Position numbers and translations under genes: made by a program. Shown one piece after another: positions 1-18,119 of a stretch of 19,623 bases of DNA. Source of the DNA: a virus (taxonomy: Duplodnaviria > Heunggongvirae > Uroviricota > Caudoviricetes); IMG/VR virus record IMGVR_UViG_2681813223_000024. The stretch is one strand, 5' to 3'. The notes beneath the pieces are model-generated. The model worked only from the letters and a program-made list of their open reading frames with translations. It ran no database searches and had not been told where the DNA came from. The first letter of the stretch is position 1. Each line of letters starts with the position of its first letter.

Positions 1-300
1 CGTATCGTGTTTCACATCCTCAATCTCGCGTAACGCGGCACGACGACCAATTTTAAAATTGGTATCCAGCTGACCGATAATAGTTGCGCTAATCGCATTA
101 ATTTCCGAGGTAAACGCAGACAACGCAGGCTGATTACGTAAGACCTGTTCGATCTTCGCTTTCTCGGATGCCTCGCATTCACCATCTGCATAGGCCACCA
201 GGTATGCAGCGTTAATCACCGCCTGTGCCAGATCGCGTTTCTCAAACTTTTTAATTTCCGCTGCCGCTCTGCGGGTTTTCTTTTTGAAGATTCCAAACAT
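1..300 (-). CDS. TerB-like protein, 5' complete, C-terminus truncated by the window edge
   Basis: ATG at 300..298 preceded by AAGGAA about 8 nt upstream; open frame runs to position 1 giving MFGIFKKKTRRAAAEIKKFEKRDLAQAVINAAYLVAYADGECEASEKAKIEQVL... The VAYADG..E..E stretch resembles the TerB/DjlA-N family from memory. Not in the ORF track because no stop lies in the window. Confidence 0.5.
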   Translation of the reverse strand, partial: MFGIFKKKTRRAAAEIKKFEKRDLAQAVINAAYLVAYADGECEASEKAKIEQVLRNQPALSAFTSEINAISATIIGQLDTNFKIGRRAALREIEDVKHDT

Positions 301-435
301 CGTGACGTTCCTTTGGGTGGGTGAGCCAACGCCCGGGAGCGATCTGCCCACAGAGAAAGTCACACTGACCACTCCGTAAGCTCACCCCCGAAAGGCTCTG
401 TGGTTGATATGCGCCGGGCGTGGCGCAGATACAAA

Positions 436-500
436 NNNNNNNNNNNNNNNNNNNNNNNNNNNNNNNNNNNNNNNNNNNNNNNNNNNNNNNNNNNNNNNNN
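436..500. other. Run of 65 N (assembly gap or masked sequence)
   Basis: Continuous n characters from 436 to 500. Confidence 0.99.
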
Positions 501-527
501 TCGCTCTCACCACTGAGCTAAAGGGCC
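501..527 (-). tRNA. tRNA 5' portion only (acceptor 5' strand, D-arm and first nucleotides after it), truncated by the N gap; isotype undetermined, tRNA-Ile(CAU)-like by resemblance
   Basis: Minus strand reads GGCCCTTTAGCTCAGTGGTGAGAGCGA: 7-nt acceptor strand, U8, A9, D-stem GCTC/GAGC, D-loop with GG and A14/A21. Closely resembles the 5' end of enterobacterial tRNA-Ile2 as I recall it. The anticodon lies in the gap. Confidence 0.45.
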
Positions 528-563
528 GGGAGCAGAATAATAACGGTCCGTAATTAATTCCGC

Positions 564-590
564 AATAAAAAACCCGCTCAATGGCGGGTT
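564..590 (-). terminator. Rho-independent terminator candidate downstream of the Q-like gene (possible tR'-like)
   Basis: Minus strand reads AACCCGC-cattga-GCGGGTT followed by TTTTATT: 7-bp stem, 6-nt loop, U-rich tail. Lies about 80 nt downstream of the Q-like stop. Confidence 0.55.
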
Positions 591-666
591 CTGGTAAAGT
601 TCATGCGTTTGGTTCGCCTCGCGATACAGCTTTGCGAAGCTTACCGGAATTGAAGCAGTTTTTACG

Positions 667-1221
667 TCAAAAAGCAATAACTTTTTTCTCTATACCAAAA
701 GCCATAACCATTGGTTTGTACAAAATAAATTCTGCCACCTTTAGCCAATGCTCAATGCGTCTTTCACAGGTTCTTAAACTCCATTCCGGATGTGCATCAT
801 TCAGCAGTTCAGCCATTTTGCGCTTAGTCATCCCCCGCCCCACATAACGCTGACTCAGAACATTGAGCAGCCCGGGATAACCTGCCAGTACTTCACCAAT
901 AACCCTGTCGATTATTAACGCCTCTGAATCGGTACAATGCACCAGCCAGCTTTTTTGCTTGCCGTTGATCATATCCCGCAAAAAAGCCTCAAGTTTAGGT
1001 TTGTCCAGACCTGCTTTTTTCATCCTCCGGAGCGCCTCGTTAATTGCCGTTTTTGTCAGCTTTTTAGAGGTCAGCAACTGGTTGAACATATTTCCCGTCT
1101 TACCGCCGCCAATATACGACCAGCGCCCCCACATACGTAGTTTCCCCTGAATCCAGACACTTTCCAGCGTGGTGAGACGAAGGTGCTCTCCGCTTTTTCC
1201 TGTGTTCGTTGGGTAAATCAT
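667..1221 (-). CDS. Putative late-gene antiterminator Q-like protein (184 aa)
   Basis: Start chosen at the internal ATG (1221..1219), which overlaps the stop of the upstream gene as ATGA. Placed immediately after nin-type genes and before a terminator and tRNA, the usual Q position. Family assignment is from position and general resemblance, not a clear motif. Confidence 0.5.
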   Translation of the reverse strand: MIYPTNTGKSGEHLRLTTLESVWIQGKLRMWGRWSYIGGGKTGNMFNQLLTSKKLTKTAINEALRRMKKAGLDKPKLEAFLRDMINGKQKSWLVHCTDSEALIIDRVIGEVLAGYPGLLNVLSQRYVGRGMTKRKMAELLNDAHPEWSLRTCERRIEHWLKVAEFILYKPMVMAFGIEKKVIAF

Positions 1222-1508
1222 AAATAACCGTCCTTTCTCCAGATCTCTTGTGTGCGAAAAACACCTTCTGCATGCATCAGGCGCAATTCTTCTTTGGTGT
1301 AATCGCTGGTTTTTACTCTCCCGTCGATTAAATCGTGGCATGAGTTACAGGCAATCGCTGCCTGCATATCGTGTGGCTTTATCGCTGTTCCGCACGTTCC
1401 CGCCAGCCTGTAATGCGCCAGCACAGAGGTTTCGGGATTGTGATTGCAGTAGCCAGGGATTCTGATCTGGCATATCTGGCCTTTAGCCGCTTTACGTAAA
1501 TTCACCAT
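1218..1508 (-). CDS. DUF1364 / YbcO-like nin-region protein (putative nuclease), 96 aa
   Basis: Protein MVNLRKAAKGQICQIRIPGYCNHNPETSVLAHYRL..IACNSCHD aligns by eye with the recalled DLP12 YbcO pattern (RKAARG.ECQVRIPGVCNGNPETSVLAH...IAC..CHD). ATGA overlaps at both ends. Confidence 0.7.
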   Translation of the reverse strand: MVNLRKAAKGQICQIRIPGYCNHNPETSVLAHYRLAGTCGTAIKPHDMQAAIACNSCHDLIDGRVKTSDYTKEELRLMHAEGVFRTQEIWRKDGYL

Positions 1509-2107
1509 TACGCAAACTCCAGTAGTTGTGCGGCCACATTTTCAACTTCCTCCTGAGAGGAGAATTTACGGAACAGAATCCAGTTCCACAGCACATTCAG
1601 TACAGATTTATAAACCTGCTGAAACTCGACTTCGTCCATATTCGCAAAAGCGATGGATTTTGCCCGACGCCCACGGCTACCGTCCGGATAAATATGCTCG
1701 GTGTAAAATCCGGCCTGAATGGTTACCCACTCGCGGAAAGCCTCAAACGACTTTAGCAACGCCGTATCCCGGGTTCTACGAGTCGCAACGGTGTTAAGGT
1801 ATTGCTCTGCGGCATCACTCAGGGCTGGCGTGTGTTCCCGACCAACTGATTCGCACAGGTAATCAACGAAACCAGACAGCAGTTCTCGTTCGCGAGGCGT
1901 GATCGCCCCACCGACCGGAGTCCAGTAATCGAATCCCAGTTGCAGGAGTTTGAAAAAACGCTTGTGGAATGCGTAGTTACGCACACGCTTAAAATCTGCG
2001 TGTATCCACTCACCTATTTTGATTTGATGCAGAAAATCGCAACTCTCCGGCGTCGCCGGGAGAAGTAAACCAGAAGAAGTTTGTTTGACCAGTTGTATAT
2101 GCGCCAT
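1508..2107 (-). CDS. nin-region protein, probably DUF1367 family (199 aa)
   Basis: Intact 199-aa ORF with a purine-rich stretch upstream of the ATG; its stop overlaps the next gene start. Family name is from memory of lambdoid prophage neighbours of YbcO-like genes. Confidence 0.55.
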   Translation of the reverse strand: MAHIQLVKQTSSGLLLPATPESCDFLHQIKIGEWIHADFKRVRNYAFHKRFFKLLQLGFDYWTPVGGAITPRERELLSGFVDYLCESVGREHTPALSDAAEQYLNTVATRRTRDTALLKSFEAFREWVTIQAGFYTEHIYPDGSRGRRAKSIAFANMDEVEFQQVYKSVLNVLWNWILFRKFSSQEEVENVAAQLLEFA

Positions 2108-2526
2108 TTCTCAATCTCTCGATGGCGCAGTGCAGCAGATGCCAGTTGTTCAAGCTAGCACGCAAATTGTAAACCAGAATGCCAGGAAAAAACAAAACCC
2201 GCCGAAGCTGGTTGTGTGCGGTTGCGTTGAAGTCTCCTAGCCAAAGAGTAGCGGTGACCACTCCCCGCCGATAATCTTAGTTGTTTAATTTCGTAAGCTA
2301 ACTAGGCTAAAAGCTCTCTGTTGTCTGCCTGTTGTACAATTAACAAAATGAACAACGAACTAGATATACCAACGCCAGAATGGTGCAACAAATCCCAAAC
2401 AACACAGCAATGCAACAATAACATATGTTATTTTCCTCTCACGGGATTCAGTCCTGAATTCTCATAAAGCTAATCTTTTTTTAAAAACATACTGTTAGAT
2501 CACATGCACTTTCTTTCTTAACATCG

Positions 2527-2554
2527 TTGACTTCGCATGCGAAGCGTTTAAAAT
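2527..2554 (+). promoter_or_regulatory. Sigma70-like promoter candidate for the GHKL operon with a palindrome in the spacer
   Basis: TTGACT at 2527..2532, 16-nt spacer, TAAAAT at 2549..2554, about 50 nt upstream of the ATG at 2607. The spacer contains the perfect 14-bp palindrome CTTCGCATGCGAAG (2531..2544). An A/T tract TTTTTTTAAAAA lies upstream. Confidence 0.5.
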
Positions 2555-2606
2555 CAACAATTTGCACTTAAGGTATTTATTTTCCCAAACACATAGAGAG
2601 TAAATT

Positions 2607-3998
2607 ATGACTGAGAACACGACTCCAACAGCAGACTTTAGTCCTAGTAAAAGATTTTTTGTAAGTATGCTAACTCGAGATATCGACTTAAACGATGCCA
2701 TACTTGATCTGCTTGATAACTGCGTCGATGGGGCTTTACGTACAATAAAAGACACAAAAAAAACTTCAAAACCATATGAAGGATTTTATGCGAAACTTAC
2801 GATTAATAAAGATGTCTTTATTATAGAAGACAATTGCGGAGGTATCCCTAAAAGCTTCCGAGAATATGCTTTTAAAATGGGACGACCCCATCAAAAAGAA
2901 GAAGAAAATGAAGGCACCGTTGGCGTCTATGGTATTGGTATGAAAAGAGCCATTTTTAAAATGGGTAGAGATTGCTCAATACAATCGAATAATCCCGATG
3001 GCGCATTCACTGTAGATATAACACCTGATTGGATCGATGGTGATGGTTGGAAAATACCGATGCACGAGAGTGACTATGATAACAAAAATCCAACAGGCAC
3101 AACTATAGAGATAAAAAAACTCCATTCTAATGTGGCACAAAAATTTAATGAGAGCACATATCTTACTGATCTCTTTTTACAGATAAAACACTCATTGTCA
3201 TTTATTATTCAAAAAGGATTTAAAATAGAATTAAATGGAGTTGTTGTTGAACATAATCCGATTAACATCATAACTGATCATTCTAAAATAGAACCATACA
3301 TATATAAAGCTAAAATAGACGATGTTGATATCGATTTAGTTGTTGGCTTCTATAAAAATTTAGAAGATGACAATGATGATGTTTTAGAAAAAAGGAGTTC
3401 TGATGATGCTGGATGGACTGTCATTTGCAATGACCGCGTTGTTCTATATTGTGATAAGACACATCTCACAGGTTGGGGCTTTGCTAATGTACCAAGGTTT
3501 CATACCCAATTTATAGCAATTTCTGGGGTTGTTCGCTTTACCAGTAAAAACCCAGAAAAATTACCAATAACAACAACGAAACGAGGTGTCGATCTTAGTT
3601 CTACATTGTACAATGATGTACGAAATAAAATGATTGAAGGGATGATGCATTTTATTCGATTCACCAATCAGTGGAAAGGTGAGCATCTTGAAGAAGGGAA
3701 AAAATTACTTAAGTCAGCTCAGTCACATGAAGCTCAATCTTTATTTGAAATTACCCCACAATCAACTCCAGAAGATAAAAAAAATAACTGGTCCAACCCT
3801 AATAGAAACAAAAATGAGTGGCGATATACACCTAAGCTGCCTACCCCAGTAAAAAAAAGCTCTACTGTACGAATAATCTTCACCAGAGAGAAAGAAGATG
3901 TTAAAATTTTATCTAAATATTTCTTTGGACATGAAGATGCTAGCGCTTCTGATGTGGGGATGCAATGCTTTGATACGGTGATTGAAGAGGTGAAGTGA
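2607..3998 (+). CDS. GHKL / Bergerat-fold ATPase (MutL/MORC/Hsp90-type ATP-binding domain) with C-terminal extension, 463 aa
   Basis: N-terminal region shows the ordered GHKL motifs: DLLDNCVDGA (motif I, ExxxNxxDA type), IEDNCGGI (motif II, DxGxG type), GVYGIGMKRA (motif III, GxxGxG), PTGTTIEI (motif IV, TGT). Purine-rich SD (agagag) 6 nt before the ATG. Confidence 0.85.
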   Translation: MTENTTPTADFSPSKRFFVSMLTRDIDLNDAILDLLDNCVDGALRTIKDTKKTSKPYEGFYAKLTINKDVFIIEDNCGGIPKSFREYAFKMGRPHQKEEENEGTVGVYGIGMKRAIFKMGRDCSIQSNNPDGAFTVDITPDWIDGDGWKIPMHESDYDNKNPTGTTIEIKKLHSNVAQKFNESTYLTDLFLQIKHSLSFIIQKGFKIELNGVVVEHNPINIITDHSKIEPYIYKAKIDDVDIDLVVGFYKNLEDDNDDVLEKRSSDDAGWTVICNDRVVLYCDKTHLTGWGFANVPRFHTQFIAISGVVRFTSKNPEKLPITTTKRGVDLSSTLYNDVRNKMIEGMMHFIRFTNQWKGEHLEEGKKLLKSAQSHEAQSLFEITPQSTPEDKKNNWSNPNRNKNEWRYTPKLPTPVKKSSTVRIIFTREKEDVKILSKYFFGHEDASASDVGMQCFDTVIEEVK

Positions 3999-4987
3999 TG
4001 TCTGGACAATACATTCCCTATCACTTAAGGCATAATAAGTCTATTGATAGAGAGATTTTTCTCGAAAGCCTAAACCTCTTAAGCAAAAGACTAAATATTC
4101 AAGAATATACATATATAGGTTTTGGTGGTCCGATGCTTGAAGATTTTAGAATCATGCATAATCGTATCGCTCTTTCTGATATGATTTCTCTCGAAGAACA
4201 AGAGTCTACTCACATCAGACAAAAATATAATTTGCCTTATAATTGTATTGATTGTAAGCTAATATCAGCTCATGACTTTATTCTTGATTATAGTTTTTCT
4301 AAACCATCAATAACATGGTTAGACTATGCCTCCCCGAAAAAAATACAAACGGATCTAGATGATATACACTTACTAAGTACTAAAGTAAGCTCTTTTGATA
4401 TTTTGAAGGTCACCTTCCCCATAAATCCTAGTTCTTATTACCAACGTAGAGTTGGAGAAAGTTTAGATATTTTTAAAGAAGCTTTTATTAATTCATTAAA
4501 ATCATTGCTTGGGAAAAAGTATCTTGATTTTAATCTTCAGATATCAAATGCAGATCTTTCAGATCGTAAGATTAAAGCTCTTTTAATACGAATTATTACA
4601 AACGCTTTTAGATCAGCAATAGAACGTGGTCTTTCAGGACGTAAGGATAAGATTCAGTATTACCCATTATCCTTAAATCAATATAATGATGGCAGTCATA
4701 CCATGTTGACAATATCAGGTTTTTTCTCCTCAGAACAAGAATATATAGAGTTATCTAAGGCATGCGACCTTTCTAACTGGCAATTTTATTCAACAAATTG
4801 GGAAGACGTGCAAGAAATAGCAATACCAACACTAACAATTAAAGAAAAGATAAATTTAGATAGTAAACTGCCTGATAAAGAAGCATATCAGGCAGCCGCT
4901 GAAGAGTTCTCTTTAAACGAAAATGAACGGGATAACTATTATAAATACTATAGGTTATACCCTAACTTCCAAAGAATTATGGTTTAA
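3998..4987 (+). CDS. Uncharacterised protein, translationally coupled partner of the GHKL ATPase (329 aa)
   Basis: ATG at 3998 shares its A with the upstream TGA; AGGTGA lies 4 nt upstream. An in-frame GTG at 3995 is the alternative start used in the ORF track. Long uninterrupted ORF in the same AT-rich context. No catalytic motif recognisable by eye. Confidence 0.75.
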   Translation: MSGQYIPYHLRHNKSIDREIFLESLNLLSKRLNIQEYTYIGFGGPMLEDFRIMHNRIALSDMISLEEQESTHIRQKYNLPYNCIDCKLISAHDFILDYSFSKPSITWLDYASPKKIQTDLDDIHLLSTKVSSFDILKVTFPINPSSYYQRRVGESLDIFKEAFINSLKSLLGKKYLDFNLQISNADLSDRKIKALLIRIITNAFRSAIERGLSGRKDKIQYYPLSLNQYNDGSHTMLTISGFFSSEQEYIELSKACDLSNWQFYSTNWEDVQEIAIPTLTIKEKINLDSKLPDKEAYQAAAEEFSLNENERDNYYKYYRLYPNFQRIMV

Positions 4988-6106
4988 ATATTCGGGCTGT
5001 ACTCTTTTATTTAATAAATTGTACAGCCCCTTTAATATATATTCAGCAACTATTGGTGACACGCTATTTCCTATTTGTCTGAAACTATGCCATTTAGTTA
5101 CATGAAAGCGAAACCAATCAGGGAAGCCTTGTAATCTAGCAGCTTCTCTTGGTGTAATCACTCTTGGATGATAAGGGTGGATCGGCCTGACGGCTTGAAA
5201 GCTTCCTTTATCTCTAGCGGTTCCCGCCCTTAAAGTCGGGCAAAAACCATTTGGATCTAATCTTGTAGATCTTGAAATTTTATCAGTTTCCCCAAAAGAT
5301 AAGGAAGCATAACGCTCTTGGACGATTTTGCTATGTAATGTTCCGGTACATCCAGATATGATATTATTTTTTAACTTAGCGATCGATTCTGTATCACCAA
5401 CATTCCGAGGGATCTGCCCCCATAATTTTTCATAAAATCCCCCTTTTCGATCTTTTTTAATTGTTCGCCAACTCTCAGAGTCTGATTGCCAATTGGCATC
5501 GATAATATCTGGTAATCCATACAAAGCATCTTTTACAGTAACCGGATCAATCATTTTAGGCATAAATACTTCATCTGAAATATCAAGCTTCAATGATTTT
5601 TTTACACCGATAAAAAAATATCTAGTTCGAATAGTTGGAGCACCATAATCAGATGCTTTTACCTTGATGGGATCAAGAATATCATAATCACCGCTAACCA
5701 AATTAAATGCTTTATTTCTAATGCCAGAATATTTCTCTTGCATAATACCTGGAACATTTTCTGCCAAAAAGAATAATGGCTGTAATTCTGATACTAAACG
5801 GTAGAAATGCATGTAAAGCTGATTCCTGCTATCATCAGGATTCCCCTTGCCTATTGAACTAAATCCTTGGCACGGAGGACCGCCAATAATACCATCTATG
5901 GGCATATCGTTTTTAAAAAAACCCTTAATTATTTCTGCATTTAGTAAAGAAACATCTTCTTGGACGTGCAAACTTCTTGGAAAATTAATTGCGTGAGTAT
6001 TAATAGCATGTTGATCAATTTCAACTGCCATTTTAACATCAAATCCAGCACGTGCAGCACCAAGACTTAGACCTCCAACGCCAGAAAACAAATCTATTAC
6101 ATTCAT
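4955..6106 (-). CDS. DNA (cytosine-5)-methyltransferase (383 aa)
   Basis: Canonical C5-MTase motifs in order: DLFSGVGG (motif I, AdoMet binding), GGPPCQGFS (motif IV, catalytic Cys), ENV (motif VI), QIGNSV near the C-terminus, with a long variable region between. 3' end overlaps the partner gene convergently by 33 bp. Confidence 0.9.
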   Translation of the reverse strand: MNVIDLFSGVGGLSLGAARAGFDVKMAVEIDQHAINTHAINFPRSLHVQEDVSLLNAEIIKGFFKNDMPIDGIIGGPPCQGFSSIGKGNPDDSRNQLYMHFYRLVSELQPLFFLAENVPGIMQEKYSGIRNKAFNLVSGDYDILDPIKVKASDYGAPTIRTRYFFIGVKKSLKLDISDEVFMPKMIDPVTVKDALYGLPDIIDANWQSDSESWRTIKKDRKGGFYEKLWGQIPRNVGDTESIAKLKNNIISGCTGTLHSKIVQERYASLSFGETDKISRSTRLDPNGFCPTLRAGTARDKGSFQAVRPIHPYHPRVITPREAARLQGFPDWFRFHVTKWHSFRQIGNSVSPIVAEYILKGLYNLLNKRVQPEYLNHNSLEVRV

Positions 6107-6138
6107 ATAGTTGCAACGTCTCTTATTAGTTTCTATGT

Positions 6139-6147
6139 ATTATAACA
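6139..6147 (-). promoter_or_regulatory. Extended -10 promoter element candidate for the methyltransferase
   Basis: Minus strand reads TGTTATAAT (TGn + TATAAT) about 30 nt upstream of the MTase ATG. Confidence 0.4.
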
Positions 6148-6368
6148 CAACTGTTCTTGATGTTTTAACCCCATAAGATAACCTCATAAAGGCTATCCCT
6201 TGAAAATACCGGATCGCATAAATTTAATCTTTCAAAACTACTTGTCTATTAATCGAGCAATTTAAGGTTGTTTTAGTCATGTCGATACCGACATAGTTAA
6301 CTAAACCCATTTCATCGTCCAACAAATGGGGGTAATACACTTTGATTTATAGTCGGGTGGGTTTTTCT

Positions 6369-6404
6369 CTATCTGCCTTTGGTGTTCATGCCCAAGGCAG
6401 ATAG
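6369..6404. repeat. Imperfect inverted repeat (about 13-bp arms, 9-nt spacer)
   Basis: CTATCTGCCTTTGG ... CCAAGGCAGATAG, preceded by GGGTTTTTCT on the plus strand. No U-tract follows the hairpin on either strand, so it is not a canonical terminator. Confidence 0.4.
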
Positions 6405-6457
6405 CCTCAAGCACCCGCAGCAATTCTACTTAACTATCCTTTTCCCGCAAATCGTTT

Positions 6458-6541: not shown

Positions 6542-7023
6542 CGTGAAACATCCTCCACGCTTATAAGTCCGCTTCGCTCCAGGTAGTCCATCACTTTATC
6601 CGGCAATTTGCAGCCCGGTTTCGCTTTCTTCAGTTGACTAACCAATTGTTTAACCAGCATTGTCAATTCGCGAACTTGTTTCCCGGGCTCCCCTTTGCCC
6701 TGAAGCAGGGCAGCGCGGCAAGCGTTCCATCCCTCAGCATATGTTTCAGTTACACCATCGAGATGGCATGTAAGCAAATCCATTTCTTCCGGCACTACGG
6801 GCGCTGGAAAAACGGCATAGGGTGGCGTCCATTTTGGCGCTTTATCTCCAGCCGAACGCTGCTACCAGTCATCCGGTTTGTATTCATAAAAATCACCAAC
6901 TGGCTCTGCTTCCAGCGATGCCAGCGCAATCCGTGCCAGTTCCATTTGTTCACCACGGGTAAGCCCGTTTTCAACCGGATTTTTAATGAACAATTCAATA
7001 CGTTCTTTGGTAATAGTGGTCAT
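6538..7023 (-). pseudogene. Hypothetical prophage gene interrupted by an in-frame amber (TAG) codon at 6862..6864; about 161 codons without the stop
   Basis: ATG at 7023 with AAGGAG 7 nt upstream. After 53 codons (MTTITKERIELFIKNPVENGLTRGEQMELARIALASLEAEPVGDFYEYKPDDW) a TAG occurs, then the same frame stays open for another 107 codons to the TGA at 6538. Confidence 0.6.
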
Positions 7024-7033
7024 GTGTTACTCC

Positions 7034-7297
7034 TTAACCCGCAGTGCTTTCAACTGATGAGGGGAACAAAATCTTTTCATCAAACCCTGCATTCATATCA
7101 TGAACAGCAACACACCAATCCATCGACGAACGATTATCAAGAGCCTCCATGATTTCATCCATGCGGCGTAGGTCATACAGGTAAATGCTTTTATCGCCAA
7201 TGGTGTAAAAGCCAATTTTTTTCGGTGATGGACAGCGATCAAGAACTTCCTGTAATTCGTTCAACCATGCCCGTTCTTTTTTTGTCAAAGTTGCCAT
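7034..7297 (-). CDS. Hypothetical prophage protein (87 aa)
   Basis: Internal ATG at 7297 preceded by AAGGAAA; protein MATLTKKERAWLNELQEVLDRCPSPKK...; co-oriented with the replication operon. Confidence 0.6.
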   Translation of the reverse strand: MATLTKKERAWLNELQEVLDRCPSPKKIGFYTIGDKSIYLYDLRRMDEIMEALDNRSSMDWCVAVHDMNAGFDEKILFPSSVESTAG

Positions 7298-7548
7298 ATC
7301 AGTTTTCCTTATACGGATTAATTTTATTGTGCAGTGTGTTGAATGACGCCCATACCACGTCGTTATACAATTCAATAACTGGCTCAATTATTTTTCCGAT
7401 TATCCAGACTAGGATTAACGGGGATATCGGTATCATCAACACGATAAACAGAATGAGAAACAGAAATTCTGTTGTTCTACTCTTTCGCGGATATTTTTTC
7501 TAAATAATGTGACCATTCATTACCGCCCTTTCGGGCGGCCTCCTGACA

Positions 7549-7761
7549 TTAATCGTTGTGATAACTCATAGCTTCATTTGCAGCATCAACTGGATCAACC
7601 TCCCTCCAGCAATAATTTGGGTCGGCTCCTTCAGGCGTCCACGGTTCTAATTCATTTTTTGCCGCATTCTCATCGCCAGTAATTTTAAAAATCTGCTCAG
7701 AGAATTTTCTTGCCCACTCGTTATATTTTTCCGCATTAATGGCTTTCTGTGTATTTAACAT
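7549..7761 (-). CDS. Hypothetical prophage protein (70 aa)
   Basis: ATG preceded by GGAGG on the minus strand; a GC-rich hairpin lies just past the stop. Confidence 0.6.
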   Translation of the reverse strand: MLNTQKAINAEKYNEWARKFSEQIFKITGDENAAKNELEPWTPEGADPNYCWREVDPVDAANEAMSYHND

Positions 7762-7866
7762 AAATATACCTCCAGTTAAGGATTAAATTTTATTTACAGT
7801 GCTGAACTTAATTATTCAGATTTGGATTATGCTTTCTCTTCACGAAGTTCCGATTGTTAATTTGGC

Positions 7867-8289
7867 TCACAACAGCACCTTCTGAAAATTACCCTGATAG
7901 AAAGCCAGTACACGCTGCATAGCTTCGCTCTTCCGGCACTCGCTACAGATTATGTTCAGACGCCTGTCGTAGCGGCGTATTTCTCCGTCTGGTAATGACC
8001 AGATAAGATCCGGATCAACCACAACCGGTTTCTTCACCTTTGCCCTTGATAGTTTTTTGCGGGCGTTTTGCCAGTCTTTACGCGCCTGCTCAGACGGGAA
8101 TAATCCGTAGCCTGAATTGTAAACATCACCACTGGCGACCAGTTCTCTGGCGAGAGTGCTTATGTAATACCTTGATGCACCGGTTTTAGCCTCCAGAGCC
8201 CGTAACGTCTCGCGACCGCTCAGACGTACAAGTTCAACAACCTGCCCTTTAATTTTTTCCCGCTCTTCTGGTGTAAATACTTTTGCCAT
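7867..8289 (-). CDS. Hypothetical prophage protein (140 aa)
   Basis: Start taken at MAKVF (ATG 8289) with GGAGG 5 nt upstream. The longer track ORF begins inside that SD and is rejected. Confidence 0.65.
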   Translation of the reverse strand: MAKVFTPEEREKIKGQVVELVRLSGRETLRALEAKTGASRYYISTLARELVASGDVYNSGYGLFPSEQARKDWQNARKKLSRAKVKKPVVVDPDLIWSLPDGEIRRYDRRLNIICSECRKSEAMQRVLAFYQGNFQKVLL

Positions 8290-8304
8290 AGGTGCCTCCG
8301 GCAA

Positions 8305-9066
8305 TCACTTTTCCGACACAATACGACTGGAGGAATCGAAAATCTGTCGAACAATATCCCGGTGCTTGTTCAGCTCCCGCAGCGCGGCGCAGACTCGCTC
8401 CCACTTCTGGACATGATTTTTCGCCCGACGCAGTTCGCGGTTTGCCATATGCAGCGATGGTAAAACCAGGTCATCCGCTCGCGTTTCAGTAAACGATGGC
8501 AGCGACTGCACAATGTCCGCCACCGTTTCTGTTTTAATATCTTCCTGTGTTGCAGCCTCCTGTACTGGTAACGCAACACCTGTGGGCTGAGGAAAGGCCT
8601 TACCATCAGTTTCCGCTACCGATGCTGCTTTCGGCTCTGCTGGTAAATTATCGCCCGGTATGCAGTAACGAAATTTACCGTTCTGGTTTACGCGAATCAG
8701 GCGTCCTTTGCTGATAGCCATTGCCAGCGTTGAAGCTACTTTGCGTGATGTGGTACCGAACAATGTAGCCAACTCATCCGCCGTTTGTGGGCCACGTTGT
8801 TCAATCGTCGCGGTTAAATCGCACTCTGAGATTTTCGCTACTGTTGCCATGGTGGTTTCTTCCGGCAGCTCTGCCGGCGCTGGCTGTTCCTGCTGAACGT
8901 TGTTATCAGCCACGCGCCAGGTGTATACGCTTTTATCAACGAAGCCAGCCTTTTTCAGTTCCCACAGCTCGTTCAGCACTTCTTCTCGACTGATATCAAG
9001 TCGCGTAGCCAGTTCTACCGACGTGGCTTTTCCCATCGCTTTCAGTGCGTCAAAAACGGTCTCCAT
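8305..9066 (-). CDS. YdaW-like prophage protein with probable N-terminal winged-helix DNA-binding domain (possibly DUF1627), 253 aa
   Basis: Start at [43 protein letters not shown] (ATG 9066) with GGAGG 8 nt upstream. Position downstream of the DnaC-like gene matches ydaW in Rac; family name is from memory. Confidence 0.6.
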
Positions 9067-9088
9067 TAAAATTTCCTCCCGGTAAAAA

Positions 9089-9835
9089 TTACTTCTCAAT
9101 ACCTGGCTGACCAACATTCGGGCGCCAGCTCTCCCAGTTAAAATTCACCCAGCGCCCGCCGTTCATGGTCATGCGATCCATAATCCGCTCGCCGAGCAAT
9201 GTTTTCATGGCCTCATAGTTCAGGTTTGTCAGCATCCCCACGCTGCGCATTGACGCTGTCCGGCGATCAACAATCTGGTGCAGTACCACCTGCTCGTTTT
9301 TCGTCTCGCGCTGAATACCAATTTCATCAAGAACCAGCAGATCAACTTCGCACAGTTCCCGCAAAAATTTTTCGCCTGACTGCCCGTCGTCATAGCTGGC
9401 GTGCAGGGCGCTCATAACATCAGCCACGGTAACCACAATCACTGTCTGGCCATCTTTCAGCAGGCGATTCCCGATAGCCGCCGCCAGATGGTTTTTTCCG
9501 GTACCAGGTTTTCCGCTGAACGCGAAATTTGTGCATCCGGTAACCAGTTCGTCAGCGATAGATTTCGCCTGACTCAACGCGTATCGCTGGCCGTCGTTCT
9601 GCACCTGGTAATTCGCAAACGAGCATTTGCGGTGCAACGGCTGTATGCCGGAGCGATTCAGGATTTTTTCCACCCGCAACTGACGATTCTGACGGTTGAT
9701 CTCCTCACAACGTTTCTGGCCTTCTGCAAGTTGCCACTCGCGCCACTCCGCCACCGTCCTGAATGGCGCGGTTACATGTGGCGGGGCCAGTCTGCGGATA
9801 CGTTCCAGAACGCCGCCTGTCGCAATATTTTTCAT
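9089..9835 (-). CDS. ydaV: DnaC-like replication helicase-loader ATPase (P-like), 248 aa
   Basis: Walker [11 protein letters not shown] and Walker B LLVLDEIG present; GGGGGT SD upstream; immediately downstream of the O-like gene. Confidence 0.8.
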
Positions 9836-9841
9836 GGTCTG

Positions 9842-10630
9842 TTACCCCCTGAAGCCTGGCGGGATCGCACTGTCCGGAAACGAGACGGTGTTAATCTGTC
9901 GGAGCAACGTCTCTGGCCGAACACCTTTCGGCGCGAACAAGCCCTGGTATTCATTGGCGATGCTGTGTCGAATCACCTGCTCAGGTGAAAAACCCTGCTG
10001 GCGGAATTTTTCCAGCTCCCGTATCGCCCCGTTAGCGCCCTGCTCCGTTCGAATCGGTTTTCGCAATGCCTGCCTGAACTGAACCCACTCATGCCAGAGT
10101 GTTTCCGGCAACCAGTCAGGCAGCTCGATAGCCTCCGGTTCGAATTTTTTAGACGCTCGTTTTTGGCGAGGGGGATTTAGGGGGAGATAAGTATTTATAT
10201 CTTCCTCTTTCTCTTCCTCTGGTAACGCTTTTTGATCCGTTTTTGTAACGCTGGCAGCGTTACCTTTTCGTTTCAGTTCTCGTATTTTTGTTACTCTCTC
10301 GTTTGTAACCGCCCGTTTTTTAGAGCTTTTCCCGTTATGGCGCTCAAAGTTAGGAAGCGACAACACACCATTAGTTTCGACCAGCCATCCAACCTGAATT
10401 AACGCATCAGCAAAACCAGCCATAAAAGTGATGCGATCTATTGCACTTTTTGTAACGCCGCGAGCGTTACACTCTGCGTTACCGTCTATCATTTGTTGAT
10501 CCGCCCATGCCCAGAAGCGAATGACTTTCCCTAATGCGGCATCTGGATCAATATTCAGAATCTCAGCAAGCCTGAATATTTCCGGCTTATCCGGCGTAAT
10601 AACTTCGAGCTTTATCCAGTTTGAAGCCAT
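9842..10630 (-). CDS. ydaU: Replication initiation O-like protein (262 aa)
   Basis: Position between the YdaT gene and the DnaC-like gene; N-terminus MASNWIKLEVITPDKPEIFRLAEIL matches my recollection of Rac YdaU. Contains two of the three iteron-like palindromes. Confidence 0.7.
   Translation of the reverse strand: MASNWIKLEVITPDKPEIFRLAEILNIDPDAALGKVIRFWAWADQQMIDGNAECNARGVTKSAIDRITFMAGFADALIQVGWLVETNGVLSLPNFERHNGKSSKKRAVTNERVTKIRELKRKGNAASVTKTDQKALPEEEKEEDINTYLPLNPPRQKRASKKFEPEAIELPDWLPETLWHEWVQFRQALRKPIRTEQGANGAIRELEKFRQQGFSPEQVIRHSIANEYQGLFAPKGVRPETLLRQINTVSFPDSAIPPGFRG
10245..10263. repeat. Iteron-like palindrome copy A (GTAACGCT-GGC-AGCGTTAC)
   Basis: One of three copies of TGTAACGC-N-GCGTTAC(A) spaced about 200 bp apart; this copy is inside the ydaU-like coding region. 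Confidence 0.5.
10452..10470. repeat. Iteron-like palindrome copy B (GTAACGC-CGCGA-GCGTTAC)
   Basis: Second copy, inside the ydaU-like coding region. Confidence 0.5.
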
Positions 10631-10642
10631 TTGTTTTCACCT

Positions 10643-10663
10643 TGTAACGCTCGCAGCGTTACA
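10643..10663. repeat. Iteron-like palindrome copy C (TGTAACGCT-CGC-AGCGTTACA, perfect 9-bp arms)
   Basis: Third copy, in the ydaT/ydaU intergenic region. A second perfect inverted repeat TACCGAAC-aaaaca-GTTCGGTA follows at 10673..10694. Confidence 0.5.
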
Positions 10664-10707
10664 TTTAACTGATACCGAACAAAACAGTTCGGTACGATTA
10701 ATTTCAA

Positions 10708-11130
10708 TCAATGCACTACGACAGAATCGCTAGGAGAACCGCCGCCGCTGAAATGTGCTTTACGGTAAACGGCCTGGACTGCATCATCATGCGCATCAAT
10801 TGCCGTACTCAGTGCATCCTGTGCCGCCAGTAATGCACGGCGTTCCAGGGTATCGAAGATGCAGAGTCGGTGACGCAGCTCGCGAGGAAGAATTGCCAGA
10901 ACCGCAGGGATCAGTTTCTGAATTTTTTCCCTTTGCGCATTCGTTTCACCTTTCAACCAACGATGATAGATATTCTGCTGATTGTTCCAGTCCTTGCCTG
11001 GTACCAGGGGCAATTCGCCGCCCCCCTGGCGCAGATATTCTTCAGTAATTGCGTTAGCGACCCACGCCTGCCCTTTTTCGGCTGCCAGGGCTAACAACAC
11101 TGATTCGATGTGCTCATGCTTGATTTTCAT
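10708..11130 (-). CDS. ydaT: YdaT-like protein of the cro-ydaT early-right operon (140 aa)
   Basis: Protein MKIKHEHIESVLLALAAEKGQAWVANAITEEYLRQGG... matches my recollection of Rac YdaT; its start overlaps the Cro-like stop as ATGA. Confidence 0.75.
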   Translation of the reverse strand: MKIKHEHIESVLLALAAEKGQAWVANAITEEYLRQGGGELPLVPGKDWNNQQNIYHRWLKGETNAQREKIQKLIPAVLAILPRELRHRLCIFDTLERRALLAAQDALSTAIDAHDDAVQAVYRKAHFSGGGSPSDSVVVH

Positions 11131-11381
11131 GAATCAACTCCCATCAGCTTTTTCGTAGTAGTTTTATTTCTGCCAATAGTTAAAATTGCATCGGCAGAAA
11201 ATAATCCGTTTGATGCATGAGCGATTTTTTCAGCGTAATTTGTTTCGCCGGTATATTCTGTGCGAGGCAATTTACCGTTATCCATCCATTTGTAGATTGC
11301 TCTTTGGCTGACACCACAAACGTCGGCCACAACAGAAACGCGAACAGTTTTGATTACATCTTCAAGTGTTTTCTGGTTCAT
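11127..11381 (-). CDS. Cro/YdaS-like HTH regulator (84 aa)
   Basis: Internal start at MNQKTLEDV (ATG 11381) with GAGGG 5-6 nt upstream; HTH-like segment VSVVADVCGVSQRAIYKWM; divergent from the CI-like gene. Confidence 0.65.
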   Translation of the reverse strand: MNQKTLEDVIKTVRVSVVADVCGVSQRAIYKWMDNGKLPRTEYTGETNYAEKIAHASNGLFSADAILTIGRNKTTTKKLMGVDS

Positions 11382-11460
11382 ATCACCCTCACAATGTGAA
11401 CTTTGAGTACATGCTATAACAGAACTGACAGTACATTCAAGAGCGAATATCATTGAACTT
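11382..11460. promoter_or_regulatory. Divergent immunity-region control region (OR-like) between the cro-like and CI-like genes
   Basis: 79-bp intergenic region with two AGTACAT motifs (11406..11412 and 11430..11437) and two TGAACTT motifs (11398..11404, 11454..11460). The CI-like ATG has no SD, consistent with a leaderless transcript. Confidence 0.45.
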
Positions 11461-11880
11461 ATGGTTCATGAAGATAAAGCGCGTAAAGAGTTCGCCAGTA
11501 GGCTTGCGCTAGCCTGTGAAAACGCTGGTTATGAACAACATGGAAGGCAGGCAGAAATTGCCCGTCGAATGAAATTAACACCAAAAGCGGTTAGCAAATG
11601 GTTTAATGGTGAAACAATTCCTCGCCGAGAGAAATTAAGGGAATTAGCAACACTCATTGGAACAACACCAACCTATCTTTTGGGAGAGGATACAGAAGAA
11701 AGTGGACAGATACGTTTCTATCAGGAGTTAAATCCAAGACAAAAAATCATCATTGACCTTCTGGACGAGCTCCCTGACAGTGAGACAGATGAACTTTTAA
11801 AAACTCTTGAGGAGAAAAAACAGAAGTACAATGCAATTTACGAAGAGTTAGCACGAAAGAAAAAACAAAAAGCCTCTTAA
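11461..11880 (+). CDS. XRE-family HTH repressor, CI/RacR-like (139 aa)
   Basis: HTH segment RQAEIARRMKLTPKAVSKWFNGETIP; divergent from the Cro-like gene and co-oriented with the early-left operon. Confidence 0.7.
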   Translation: MVHEDKARKEFASRLALACENAGYEQHGRQAEIARRMKLTPKAVSKWFNGETIPRREKLRELATLIGTTPTYLLGEDTEESGQIRFYQELNPRQKIIIDLLDELPDSETDELLKTLEEKKQKYNAIYEELARKKKQKAS

Positions 11881-11957
11881 ACCAGCATAAATCCGGTAGC
11901 GTCCCCCTCCGGGTTTGTGCTTCACTTTATCCCGTCTCATTTTTTTATACATAAAAT

Positions 11958-11999
11958 GTACTTAAAGTACTTTACAATGATGAACACAAAGTACATTAT
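11958..11999 (+). promoter_or_regulatory. OL-like operator/promoter region downstream of the CI-like gene
   Basis: Contains GTACTT, the perfect palindrome AAAGTACTTT (11964..11973) and AAAGTACATT (11988..11997), sharing the AGTACAT core seen in the OR-like region. TTTACA at 11971..11976 with a weak -10 about 17 nt downstream. Confidence 0.35.
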
Positions 12000-12167
12000 A
12001 TACCTACCAACCCACCCCGCCCCACAGAACGCCGGGCAATACTTCGAGTTACCAGGCAGTGGTCAGGGGTTAAGTAGCCAGCCCGAGGCGTATGAACATG
12101 ACGGCGGGATTCAAATTTTGCAGTGCAGCAGTTAGTTCCGCCACCCGGCGTTAAGGGGATAGATAAG

Positions 12168-12302
12168 ATGGTGCATTACGAAGTAGTTCAGTATTTGATG
12201 GATTGTTGCGGTATCACTTACAACCAGGCTGTGCAGGCTTTACGCAGCAACGACTGGGATCTCTGGCAGGCAGAAGTCGCTATACGTAGCAACAAGATGT
12301 GA
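12168..12302 (+). CDS. ydaG: Small Rac-type protein (44 aa, MVHYEVVQYLMDCCGITYNQAVQALRSNDWDLWQAEVAIRSNKM)
   Basis: ATG preceded by AAGGGGA; sequence matches my recollection of Rac YdaG; below the ORF-track cutoff. Confidence 0.55.
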   Translation: MVHYEVVQYLMDCCGITYNQAVQALRSNDWDLWQAEVAIRSNKM

Positions 12303-12312
12303 GATTCGCAAA

Positions 12313-12468
12313 ATGCAAAAAATCGACCTCGGCAACAACGAATCCCTGGTGTGCGGCGTGTTCCCCAACCAGGATGGAACGTTCACTGCCATGACGTATA
12401 CCAAAAGCAAAACATTTAAAACCGAAACTGGTGCGCGCCGATGGTTGGAGAAGCACACAGTAAGCTAA
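12313..12468 (+). CDS. ydaF: Small Rac-type protein (51 aa, MQKIDLGNNESLVCGVFPNQDGTFTAMTYTKSKTFKTETGARRWLEKHTVS)
   Basis: ATG 10 nt after the ydaG stop; 3' end overlaps the sieB 3' end by 4 nt on the opposite strand; recalled as Rac YdaF. Confidence 0.55.
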   Translation: MQKIDLGNNESLVCGVFPNQDGTFTAMTYTKSKTFKTETGARRWLEKHTVS

Positions 12469-12953
12469 CGATTAAAACGTCTACTCCTGCTGTTCCAGAA
12501 TAACTTCATAAAATGGGAGTATTTTTCGGTGACGAGATAATAAGAACAGTTTGCGCTATCACTCTGATGTTGAATGATGCCCTTCCGTTCTAATTTTTTC
12601 ATAACCGGGTTACGGCAAGGAGAAGTGATAATAAGATTTCCTGTTTTAAGGAAATCTTTAAATACAGCGATTTCTTTCTCAGATAAACGAAGCAATACTC
12701 GTTGCTCTGGTAGTAATGAATAATGCTTTTGAATATGTGCTCGCAATCTTGAGAAGGAAATGGCGACCACGAAAGAAAAGGCAAAAACGATAATCTGAAA
12801 GAGCCAAGGTATTTCAGTATAAGCATTGAATGCGACAGTAAACTCTTTCGGTATCAGCCAGAGAGTGAGACCAAAAATGATAATCGTATACATAAGTCTT
12901 TCGAGTGGCTCGTTAGCAAAAAGTTTCAACAATGGAGTAAATACATCCAACAT
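12465..12953 (-). CDS. sieB: Superinfection exclusion protein B (162 aa)
   Basis: Start at MLDVFTPLLKLFANEPLERLMYTIIIFGLTLWLIP (ATG 12953) with GAGAG 8 nt upstream; hydrophobic N-terminal half; opposite orientation to the early-left operon, as in lambda and Rac. Confidence 0.8.
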   Translation of the reverse strand: MLDVFTPLLKLFANEPLERLMYTIIIFGLTLWLIPKEFTVAFNAYTEIPWLFQIIVFAFSFVVAISFSRLRAHIQKHYSLLPEQRVLLRLSEKEIAVFKDFLKTGNLIITSPCRNPVMKKLERKGIIQHQSDSANCSYYLVTEKYSHFMKLFWNSRSRRFNR

Positions 12954-13171
12954 ATCAATAACTCTCAACTGTAAGGGTATTGAAATGTTAACACAAGCTC
13001 TCGCTGTAGGGGTATAGCCGAGACCACCGAAGCCCGGAGGTGGTGAAATAAAACCGGGCACAACACGAAGGCGCATTTCCGATATCCATAAAGAGTCGGT
13101 CTTGTCTGTTAAATTTAAATGGTGGGAGTGCGCCTCCGGTTGTAAATAACGACATTGCTGTGTGTAGTCCT

Positions 13172-13220
13172 GGCGGCATCAGTTTTTTTCTTGAAGTTCG
13201 GCTGATGTCCGCCCTTTTTA
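13172..13220 (+). terminator. Terminator-like hairpin between sieB and kilR (tL-like candidate)
   Basis: GGCGGCATCAG, about 19-nt loop, CTGATGTCCGCC, then CTTTTTA. Stem of 11 bp with one bulge; the large loop lowers confidence. Confidence 0.3.
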
Positions 13221-13394
13221 AAGTGAATTTTGTGATGCGATGAATGCGGCTAAGCGCACGTGGCACAGTTAAAAGTCATGTTAGTCCTTATTGGTTTGGG
13301 TGGGAAAGCCGACTGTAATTGTTAACTGGTTGCAGTCACCTGGAGGCACCAGGCACCGCATCAACAAAGTTCATTTGTAAAAATGGAGATAATT

Positions 13395-13616
13395 ATGATT
13401 GCACATCACTTCGGAACTGATGAAATACCACGTCAGTGTGTGACTCCTGGCGATTATGTTCTTCATGAAGGCCGGACATATATTGCCTCGGCAAACAATA
13501 TTAAAAAGCGAAAACTATATATTCGTAACCTGACCACAAAAACATGCATTACTGACCGCATGATTAAAGTCTTCCTCGGTCGTGATGGTTTACCTGTAAA
13601 GGCGGAGTCATGGTGA
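13395..13616 (+). CDS. kilR: Rac-type killing protein KilR (FtsZ-directed division inhibitor in K-12), 73 aa
   Basis: Start at [32 protein letters not shown] with GGAG 6 nt upstream; sequence matches recalled KilR. Confidence 0.8.
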
Positions 13617-13786
13617 TGACTAAGAAAATAAAATGTGCTTACCACCTTTGCAAAAAAGACGTTGAAGAAAGCAAAGCTATTGAAAGAATGCTTCACTTCA
13701 TGCACGGGATTTTATCAAAAGACGAACCGAGAAAATATTGCAGTGAAGCTTGTGCCGAAAAAGACCAGATGGCACATGAACTTTAA
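13616..13786 (+). CDS. ydaE: Small four-cysteine zinc-ribbon-like protein (56 aa)
   Basis: ATG overlaps the kilR stop as ATGA; [14 protein letters not shown]...YCSEACAEK has two Cys pairs; recalled as Rac YdaE; below the ORF-track cutoff. Confidence 0.6.
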   Translation: MTKKIKCAYHLCKKDVEESKAIERMLHFMHGILSKDEPRKYCSEACAEKDQMAHEL

Positions 13787-13860
13787 TTAATTGACTATTC
13801 GAAACTGAATTTATGCCAGAAATGGCAGGTATTCGCTCAACCTTAATTAAGGAGAAAAAC

Positions 13861-14136
13861 ATGATTACCAATTATGAAGCCACTGTTGTAACTACCGATG
13901 ACATTGTTCACGAGGTGAATCTGGAAGGAAAGCGCATTGGCTACGTAATTAAAACAGAAAATAAAGAAACCCCATTCACTGTGGTTGATATCGATGGTCC
14001 ATCAGGCAACGTAAAAACACTTGATGAAGGTGTCAAAAAAATGTGCCTGGTGCATATCGGAAAGAATCTGCCCACAGAAAAAAAAGCCGAATTTCTGGCA
14101 ACTCTAATTGCAATGAAATTAAAAGGTGAAATCTGA
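13861..14136 (+). CDS. racC: RacC protein (91 aa)
   Basis: Start at MITNYEATVVTTDD with AGGAG 7 nt upstream; matches recalled RacC. Confidence 0.8.
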   Translation: MITNYEATVVTTDDIVHEVNLEGKRIGYVIKTENKETPFTVVDIDGPSGNVKTLDEGVKKMCLVHIGKNLPTEKKAEFLATLIAMKLKGEI

Positions 14137-14237
14137 AAGAAATAGCCTGCGTATGGCGCAGGCTATGAACAGTGTGTATCCGGCAAGATCATTCACTGAA
14201 CAAAACGAATTTTAATCTGAGTTGAGGTTAAAAAACA

Positions 14238-16838: not shown

Positions 16839-17640
16839 GCAACCACCAATCGCAAAAGCCGATCTGCAAAAAACTCAGGGAAACCGTGCACCAGCAGCAA
16901 TTAAAAATAACGACGTGATTAGTTTTATTAACCAGCCATCAATGAAAGAGCAACTGGCAGCAGCTCTTCCACGCCATATGACGGCTGAACGTATGATCCG
17001 TATCGCCACCACAGAAATTCGTAAAGTTCCGGCGTTAGGAAACTGTGACACTATGAGTTTTGTCAGTGCAATCGTACAGTGTTCACAGCTCGGACTTGAG
17101 CCCGGTAGCGCCCTCGGTCATGCATATTTACTGCCTTTTGGTAATAAAAACGAAAAGAGCGGTAAAAAAAACGTTCAGCTAATCATTGGCTATCGAGGCA
17201 TGATTGATCTGGCTCGCCGTTCAGGTCAAATCGCCAGCTTGTCAGCCCGTGTTGTCCGTGAAGGTGACGAGTTTAATTTCGAATTTGGCCTTGATGAAAA
17301 GTTAATACACCGCCCAGGAGAAAACGAAGATGCCCCTGTTACCCACGTCTATGCTGTCGCAAGACTGAAAGACGGAGGTACTCAGTTTGAAGTTATGACG
17401 CGCAAACAGATTGAGCTGGTGCGCAGCCAGAGTAAAGCTGGTAATAACGGGCCGTGGGTAACTCACTGGGAAGAAATGGCAAAGAAAACGGCTATTCGTC
17501 GCCTGTTCAAATATCTGCCCGTATCAATTGAGATCCAGCGTGCAGTATCAATGGATGAAAAGGAACCACTGACAATCGATCCTGCAGATTCCTCTGTATT
17601 AACCGGGGAATACAGTGTAATCGATAATTCAGAGGAATAA
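16831..17640 (+). CDS. recT: RecT single-strand annealing recombinase (269 aa)
   Basis: Start at [42 protein letters not shown] overlapping the recE stop by 8 nt; an ATG 6 nt upstream (MQMTKQ) is an alternative start. Confidence 0.93.
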
Positions 17641-17695
17641 TTCAGCCTGGCGGTGTAATGCACCGCCAACTTGAAATATTTTTATGAGAAAAATT

Positions 17696-17845: not shown

Positions 17846-17882
17846 AATAAACGAACCACTGGAAATAATAATGGAGGTGTTC

Positions 17883-18071: not shown

Positions 18072-18103
18072 ATTGCATTGTATTCAAATTAAAACTTCAT
18101 AGC

Positions 18104-18119
18104 TGATTATTAATAATCA
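18104..18119. repeat. Perfect 16-bp A/T-rich palindrome upstream of xis (TGATTATTAATAATCA)
   Basis: Self-complementary 16-mer about 50 nt upstream of the xis start. Confidence 0.35.

Follow-up and report, generated by a model that had tools for sequence, protein, structure and literature searches.

What does a prophage gain from an ATPase of the GHKL superfamily, and what is the half of this protein that looks like nothing familiar? The question is raised by a gene at positions 2607..3998 (+) of a 19,623-nt stretch of Caudoviricetes DNA (IMG/VR record IMGVR_UViG_2681813223_000024; the whole stretch is called the window below), which a first-pass annotation described as encoding a GHKL ATPase with an uncharacterised C-terminal half of about 290 aa. 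The open reading frame (ORF) was confirmed; it begins with ATG and encodes 463 aa, and identical copies in the chromosomes of E. coli O157:H7 and O111 carry the RefSeq label 'ATP-binding protein' (WP_000138556). We conclude that the product is, with high probability, a prokaryotic MORC-type GHKL-S5 ATPase consisting of an N-terminal strap, a Bergerat domain, an S5 transducer and a helical tail. Its gene forms a cassette with the genes for a partner protein of methyltransferase fold and for a Dcm-type cytosine methyltransferase. As to the role of the whole, we lean towards a reading in which the MORC-type ATPase serves as an ATP-driven clamp or sensor within a Dcm-marked, nuclease-free cassette that resembles restriction-modification (R-M) systems.

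Membership of the GHKL superfamily, as first proposed, was supported by profile search: Pfam HATPase_c_3 matched residues 28-132 (E=2.9e-9; 37.5 bits, the cutoff being 25). The first ~170 residues hold, as had also been stated, all four Bergerat motifs, which are invariant across 112 distinct homologues. Motif I (D34-x3-N38-x2-D41-G42; locally D34-LLD-N38-CV-D41) is unchanged in 112/112; motif II (D75-N-C-G78-G79), motif III, which is the Gly-rich ATP lid (G106-x-Y-G109-I-G111-M-K113), and motif IV (G164-T165) are invariant or nearly so. The Pfam match, a MAFFT alignment with E. coli MutL, GyrB and HtpG, and the invariance in 112/112 sequences together define an ATP-binding domain of residues 28-175 (2688..3131, +). 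In this alignment N38 falls on the Mg-binding Asn (MutL N33, GyrB N46), D75 on the adenine-binding Asp and the Gly loops on ATP-binding residues. The general base in motif I of GHKL ATPases is normally a Glu. The residue aligned to this Glu (MutL E29, GyrB E42, HtpG E12) is the invariant D34, and thus the family has an Asp in the usual place of the Glu. With motifs I to IV, a profile score above the curated threshold and the corresponding fold, the 463-aa protein belongs to the GHKL (Bergerat-fold) superfamily, from which Asp34 is its deviation. As judged from the alignment, the replacement suggests a slow, switch-like ATPase. Upstream of the domain, residues 1-27 (2607..2687, +) carry the motif P13-x-K-x-FFVxMLTRD, in which P13, K15, F17, F18 and D25 are invariant among the 112 sequences and the stretch FFVxMLTRD (residues 17-25) is highly conserved. 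The N-terminal strap of MutL and GyrB is dimer-exchanged; by analogy, we infer that residues 1-27 are a dimer-exchanged strap as well.

The C-terminal half had been described as lysine/asparagine-rich and motif-poor, and neither term proved apt. Lys and Asn make up 16.3% of residues 175-463 versus 14.9% of residues 1-174, which is nothing distinctive and reflects the low G+C content of the whole island that holds the gene (about 0.34). The strongest motifs of the protein lie in this half: AGWTxxCNDR (268-277), TGWG (288-291), H299-x-Q301-F (HxQF, 299-302) and LPxTTTKRG (319-327), followed by WK (356-357), LPxP (411-414) and GxxCF (451-455). Mean column conservation over the 112 sequences is 0.64 for residues 176-332 versus 0.59 for the GHKL domain. 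An AlphaFold2 model built with 40 homologues was confident (mean predicted local distance difference test score, pLDDT, 82; predicted template modelling score, pTM, 0.76), and its Foldseek matches among solved structures were Hsp90/TRAP1, SMCHD1 and MORC2/3 (E about 1e-13, template modelling (TM) score about 0.5, 10-14% identity). From these matches, residues ~176-332 (3132..3602, +) are an S5-fold transducer, which agrees with the S5-like domain that had been guessed at, and this domain directly follows the GHKL domain as it does in MORC proteins. What is left of the uncharacterised half is therefore a family-specific tail, residues 333-463; the rest is a standard and very well conserved MORC-type S5 transducer.

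Within the transducer, GWTVICNDRVV (residues 269-279; 3411..3443, +) matches GhXhhpXXRhl, the pattern by which Iyer, Abhiman & Aravind set MORCs apart from all other GHKL proteins (PMC2292703). Used as a regular expression, the pattern was present in the window ATPase and in 108/112 family members; in neighbouring ORFs it occurred 3 times in 153,817 residues, a background of 0.9% per 463 aa. By sequence, GWTVICNDRVV is thus a probable counterpart of the eukaryotic MORC motif. Further on, the LPxTTTKRG loop (residues 319-327; 3561..3587, +) stands directly before a long helix (333-355), and its K325 and R326 are invariant in 112/112 sequences. Contacts to the ATP gamma-phosphate are made by the Arg of the catalytic loop LPLNVSRE in HtpG and by K307 in MutL. 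K325 was aligned with the former and lay 2 residues off the latter (MAFFT), and we predict that the loop with K325/R326 is a gamma-phosphate sensor. The tail (3603..3995, +) was modelled with a pLDDT of 73-93 as two helices, a variable linker with the invariant LPxP (411-414), and a terminal helical hairpin with GxxCF; their conservation is 0.58, 0.34 and 0.54, respectively. For residues 333-463 there was no Pfam match, no PDB sequence match and no separate fold match among PDB structures, and no nuclease-like conserved acidic or His cluster was found in the columns of the tail and the S5 domain. PDB sequence searches with the ATPase, the family profile, an S5-only profile and a profile of the partner protein gave nothing significant, the best being weak matches to MORC3/MORC4 at the G1-G2 region (E about 0.06).

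How does this protein relate to GHKL-S5 proteins already described? From gene neighbourhoods, Iyer, Abhiman & Aravind (2008, PMC2292703) predicted that prokaryotic MORC and paraMORC proteins serve R-M systems together with cytosine methylases and Vsr. The window ATPase resembles them in its GHKL + S5 architecture, in having all ATP motifs and in the MORC signature at 269-279; its family resembles them in its cytosine methylase and Vsr neighbours and in a patchy, laterally mobile spread. About 70% of the prokaryotic MORC operons described there contain a superfamily II (SFII) helicase and a nuclease. In contrast, the window cassette has neither and fits the minority of operons with a methylase and no helicase; its PF20553 partner (see below) goes unmentioned in the paper's text (PMC2292703). 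ParaMORC1, as defined there, is without the MORC motif, carries a conserved extension of its own past S5 and occurs together with a MORC gene, methylases or HNH. The window ATPase also has an extension (333-463), but the MORC motif is present in its family; a second HATPase_c_3 gene and HNH_2 occur near the ATPase gene in Serratia and a few other loci. ParaMORC2-5 were rejected as identities: the ExxxH in the C-terminal part of S5 (paraMORC2), the C-terminal nuclease of restriction-endonuclease (RE) fold (paraMORC3), the TIR domain (paraMORC4) and the HxH domain (paraMORC5) given for them in that paper (PMC2292703) are all missing from the conserved columns, and Pfam reported HATPase_c(_3) alone. 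In VcSduA, a GHKL-Shedu fusion of the paraMORC3 type, the GHKL ATPase is needed for phage defence by experiment and is predicted to control the effector (PMC12137116). That effector is a fused PD-(D/E)xK nuclease (DUF4263), unlike the window protein, whose tail has no nuclease motifs and whose candidate effector is a separate methyltransferase-fold protein. For prokaryotic MORC systems with a separate ATPase gene, we found no experimental test in the literature. Eukaryotic MORC2/MORC3 and SMCHD1 differ in several respects: identity is 15%, the CW, coiled-coil, chromo-like and SMC-hinge domains are missing from the window ATPase, its tail (333-463) is unrelated, and its motif I has Asp versus their Glu. 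MutL proper was rejected as well. The window protein has 463 aa versus 615 aa, has no C-terminal dimerisation/endonuclease domain and no DNA_mis_repair or NCBIfam match, and goes with a different partner; when the family profile was compared by hhalign with the single E. coli MutL sequence, 19 residues were aligned, covering the DNxxGI motif only.

We then considered the genes that accompany the ATPase, using 80 species-genome loci and 50 IMG/VR viral contigs, the latter found from the partner's side and including about a dozen identical or nearly identical to the window. The partner gene (3995..4987, +; RefSeq start 3998; 329/330 aa) belongs to PF20553, Methyltransf_35. The stop codon of the ATPase gene overlaps its start in the sequence TGATG at 3996-4000; the partner is translationally coupled to the ATPase gene, and the two form an operon with the ATPase first. 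A PF20553 gene lies immediately downstream of the ATPase gene in 76/80 species genomes, usually with a 4-nt overlap, and in 49/49 testable viral contigs, and the pairwise-identity matrices of the two proteins correlate with r=0.90. The pair is obligate and co-evolving, with Dcm as a third member that is frequent yet exchangeable. The partner is confidently predicted to have a methyltransferase fold with intact S-adenosylmethionine (SAM)-binding motifs. It has the features of a class I SAM-methyltransferase: a Rossmann-type seven-stranded fold, a Gly-rich motif I loop, an acidic residue after beta2 and the motif IV Asp. Two variants were seen among the loci. In one (L136, 6001-6994) the partner is divided into two ORFs by an apparent frameshift beside an intact ATPase and Dcm, a single case and a possible inactivation; in four cyanobacterial loci (L035, L047, L072 and L074) the ATPase gene is followed by a longer Dcm-like gene (about 430 aa), and the PF20553 partner is absent.

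The third gene (4955..6106, -) encodes a DNA C5-cytosine methyltransferase of Dcm type (Pfam DNA_methylase, E=2.6e-61; TIGR00675; PADLOC MTase_II, E=2e-98). Dcm homologues were adjacent in 72/80 of the species genomes and in 49/50 of the viral contigs. Its position differs between the two sets: in genomes it is mostly upstream in the same operon, with 11 loci convergent downstream, and in viral contigs it is mostly convergent downstream with overlapping 3' ends. The latter is the arrangement in the window, where the partner and Dcm genes converge and overlap by 33 nt (4955-4987); a similar overlap of up to about 60 nt is found in most prophage-borne copies. This recurrence suggests antisense or transcriptional-interference control. 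The cassette-linked Dcm proteins fall into two classes by E-value (about 1e-120 and about 1e-70) and are unusually alike across phyla, with a median pairwise identity of 0.50. Even the stretch between motifs VIII and IX, which contains the target-recognition domain, is moderately conserved (0.41-0.53), so that one recognition sequence may be common to many cassettes. The sole other recurrent neighbours were Vsr, in 28/80 loci (35%), and an HhH-GPD glycosylase, in 7/80. Both are repair enzymes that usually go with cytosine methylases. Genes of type I or type IIG R-M, AbiE, HNH or toxin-antitoxin surround or adjoin some copies of the cassette. The Serratia marcescens locus (L005) has an HNH_2 gene upstream and, downstream, Dcm and a second HATPase_c_3 protein of 608 aa with the MORC motif GLYFISNDRVI; a (CACCCA)n hexamer tract at about 7850-7900, ~100 nt upstream of its ATPase homologue, could be a phase-variation tract.

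Several properties of the cassette fit a system in which Dcm marks self: the operon logic, a Dcm gene that is co-transcribed or convergent, the patchy horizontal spread, the character of low-GC cargo and a pair that runs opposite to the phage operon. In such a system, ATP binding would dimerise the N-terminal domains with the help of the strap segment FFVxMLTRD, by analogy with MORC, MutL and GyrB/type II topoisomerase, and the dimerised ATPase would close on DNA as a clamp. The K325/R326 loop would couple the S5 transducer to the gamma-phosphate and its hydrolysis. Resident DNA would be marked by Dcm, and the ATPase and its partner, acting as clamp and partner on DNA without the mark, would be the non-protective ('R-like') half of a self/non-self system based on methylation. 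As for type II R-M, a methyltransferase gene, Dcm, does adjoin the other genes, and the search for a nuclease fold or motif in the ATPase, the partner and the conserved neighbours found none, Vsr (35%) aside. With no conserved nuclease, the effect would have to lie in the partner's transfer of methyl groups or in clamping and occlusion rather than in cutting. The logic of the cassette may thus be closer to BREX than to a classical type II enzyme. As in BREX and DISARM, a methyltransferase would mark self alongside ATPase components, and the core logic of BREX is without a classical restriction nuclease; the window Dcm also resembles the PADLOC models DrmMII and DruM. The likeness is one of logic only, as none of the BREX or DISARM families is present besides the methylase, and three genes compare with six or more. 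We put the chance of an R-M-like or defence role for the cassette at about even, and regard the specific nuclease-free mechanism as doubtful. Its most explicit form, a MORC-based epigenetic immunity in which an ATP-gated clamp spots unmarked incoming DNA and, with the second methyltransferase, silences or chemically poisons it, seems to us rather unlikely. Other named defence systems were rejected: the MzaB model of MZA scored far below its cutoff (NF041932, 12.4 bits versus 850) and the partners of MZA were not among the neighbours; the cassette is not the HEF_HK/Response_reg_2 duplet (PMC8011034); and neighbour matches to 'mad2/mad3' of MADS were type I HsdM/HsdS-like genes. Described systems do, however, share with the cassette GHKL ATPases of the HATPase_c_3 type with a genetic link to a C5 cytosine methylase, in surroundings like those of defence islands.

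A number of observations weigh against the clamp of an R-M-like cassette. No nuclease (Vsr aside), helicase or other recognised effector recurs among the neighbours of the 80 loci. Consequently, the R-M reading, which has no conserved effector to draw on, needs effector chemistry that is unprecedented. The substrate of the partner is uncertain, its closest folds being RNA methyltransferases by a small margin only, and the Asp-for-Glu change in motif I could mean weak or no hydrolysis. The tie to Dcm is looser than that within the pair: the ATPase and Dcm identity matrices correlate with r=0.49, a weak co-evolution, and 8/80 loci, mostly cyanobacterial and in some cases with the contig ending just upstream, have the pair and no Dcm in the available locus DNA. 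A further 4/80 have the ATPase and Dcm and no partner. Defence genes are a minority of the sampled neighbours, most of which are ordinary. Finally, no PADLOC v2 model matches the ATPase or the partner, PHROGs lists both under 'unknown function', and full-text literature searches found no description of the cassette.

Could the cassette instead serve modification alone? Both methyltransferases would then modify DNA, with the ATPase loading or stimulating them, so as to protect prophage or host DNA (an anti-restriction function) or to regulate genes epigenetically, and nothing would be attacked. Such a role accords with two proteins that have intact SAM motifs, with the lack of a nuclease and with a Dcm gene that lies in the direction of phage early transcription, and solitary Dcm or Dam genes are common in the nin region of phages. 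However, the family is overwhelmingly chromosomal and non-phage, is often accompanied by Vsr and is present in one of 50,697 GenBank phage records. The pair, moreover, has a promoter-like site of its own and is transcribed against the phage operon, antagonistic R/M gene pairs typically show the kind of convergent overlap that it has with Dcm, and an ATP-driven clamp is not something that a protective methylase normally requires. We consider a modification-only role unlikely. The Vsr and glycosylase genes, which are the sole recurrent extra neighbours (28/80 and 7/80), can be read in favour of a repair accessory, that is, a MutL-like matchmaker for very-short-patch repair of T:G mismatches arising from deaminated 5-methylcytosines of the cassette, which would stimulate Vsr or the glycosylase; E. 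coli MutL does stimulate Vsr (cited in PMC2292703). But Dcm alone accounts for Vsr, Vsr is missing from 65% of the cassettes, including that of the window and every viral-contig copy except one, and the obligate, co-evolving methyltransferase-fold partner is left unexplained. We regard this role as improbable.

The slight leaning of the partner's fold towards RNA methyltransferases bears on a different proposal, abortive infection: the ATPase would sense phage DNA or protein and free the partner to act on tRNA or rRNA, so that translation stops, and Dcm would be a frequent neighbour or would tune the sensor. We hold this to be quite unlikely. As for a signalling kinase or chaperone unrelated to DNA, histidine-kinase-like or Hsp90-like, Hsp90 and TRAP1 were the top Foldseek matches by E-value and there was a faint NCBIfam match to the DpiB kinase (E=0.003). 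Histidine kinases are defined by a DHp domain that bears the phospho-acceptor His and by a CA domain to which no S5 transducer is joined, and the ATPase does not have this composition. An Hsp90 paralogue was rejected too: the likeness is at the level of fold (TM about 0.5, 10-14% identity), the N-M-C chaperone architecture with its C-terminal dimerisation domain is not present and no PDB Hsp90 was matched by sequence. For both, as for MutL proper, the ranking of the folds counted in the rejection along with the absent domains. A kinase or chaperone is very improbable. We therefore keep to the MORC-type clamp or sensor as the reading of the cassette, at the modest preference stated at the outset.

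The breadth of the family bears on its mode of transmission. More than 5400 clusters were matched by the ATPase, the best 120 of which are 441-495 aa long with 95-100% coverage. Members occur in at least 585 species genomes from more than 15 bacterial phyla and in one methanogen (an archaeon), with a patchy distribution; two plasmids carry the family. The one isolated phage among the 50,697 GenBank records is Pseudomonas phage PfAC20 (L088, PP058144), a filamentous Pf phage of 13.6 kb in which the triad of ATPase, partner and cytosine methylase lies at 280-3711 together with a second, short Dcm gene. The cassette is self-contained and horizontally mobile.

MORC ATPases silence transposons and methylated DNA in plants and animals, and their mode of action is debated; to our knowledge, bacterial MORC relatives have so far been analysed only by computer. 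The puzzle of the C-terminal half is largely resolved, and the interest now lies in a widespread Dcm-MORC-methyltransferase cassette without a nuclease, two of whose proteins, the ATPase and the partner, are currently labelled generically or as of 'unknown function'. The window offers a compact three-gene bacterial MORC cassette in the genetically tractable E. coli. If it is a defence system, it would be an R-M-like type without a nuclease, and the question would be how a second methyltransferase works as an effector; if epigenetic immunity were true, the cassette would represent a bacterial forerunner of the tie that eukaryotes have between MORC and DNA-methylation-based silencing. If it is not defence, it would still be the cleanest available model for a MORC clamp beside a cytosine methylase. 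As prophage-borne cargo in the O157 and O111 lineages, it may also matter for the biology of Shiga toxin-producing E. coli (STEC).

The three genes make up a low-GC accessory island (2231..6358) of 4.1 kb, with a G+C content of 0.32-0.37 versus 0.45-0.54 in the flanks. The flanks (2132-2230 and 6359-6435) match the surroundings of hokD, on both its sides, in the Qin-type prophages that K-12 and numerous other E. coli strains carry, and thus the cassette fills a variable cargo slot, located in the nin region of a Rac-like lambdoid prophage of the STEC (E. coli O157) type. The slot adjoins a NinB-like DUF1367 gene, and in another strain it holds KilA-N and DUF1971 genes. At a coverage of >=80%, the island was present in 172/5426 complete E. 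coli genomes, chromosomal every time. In one O111 strain a copy of IS1203 lies near the island, outside the three genes, which is uninformative. The ATPase-partner pair is transcribed against the phage operon and has a promoter-like site of its own (TTGACT-16-TAAAAT; 2527..2554, +; 10/12 consensus positions) about 50 nt upstream of the ATPase start, a moron-like arrangement. The hexamers are conserved in a cassette of 85% identity (L100). The site is weak evidence for a promoter, because the number of promoter-like sites in the region, 19, does not exceed chance (17.5 expected). A perfect 14-bp palindrome inside the spacer, CTTCGCATGCGAAG at 2531-2544, was considered as an operator and rejected, as it is not conserved in L100, the closest homologous cassette. 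In another enterobacterial subclade (L067, L102, L105), the upstream region has a T-run and three ATGCA boxes in its stead.

Apart from the island, the window represents a Rac-like lambdoid prophage, whose genes include those for an integrase, RecE/RecT-like proteins, a repressor pair and replication, as well as the NinB-like DUF1367 gene. Its early region (6600-19623) includes DUF977, DUF1627, ydaV (DnaC-like) and ydaT genes and a divergent pair of helix-turn-helix (HTH) repressor genes at 11127-11453 (-) and 11461-11880 (+). A RecE-like ORF of 866 aa (14238-16838) and a RecT-like ORF (16774-17640) follow, and the integrase ORF (18388-19623) extends to the last base of the window.

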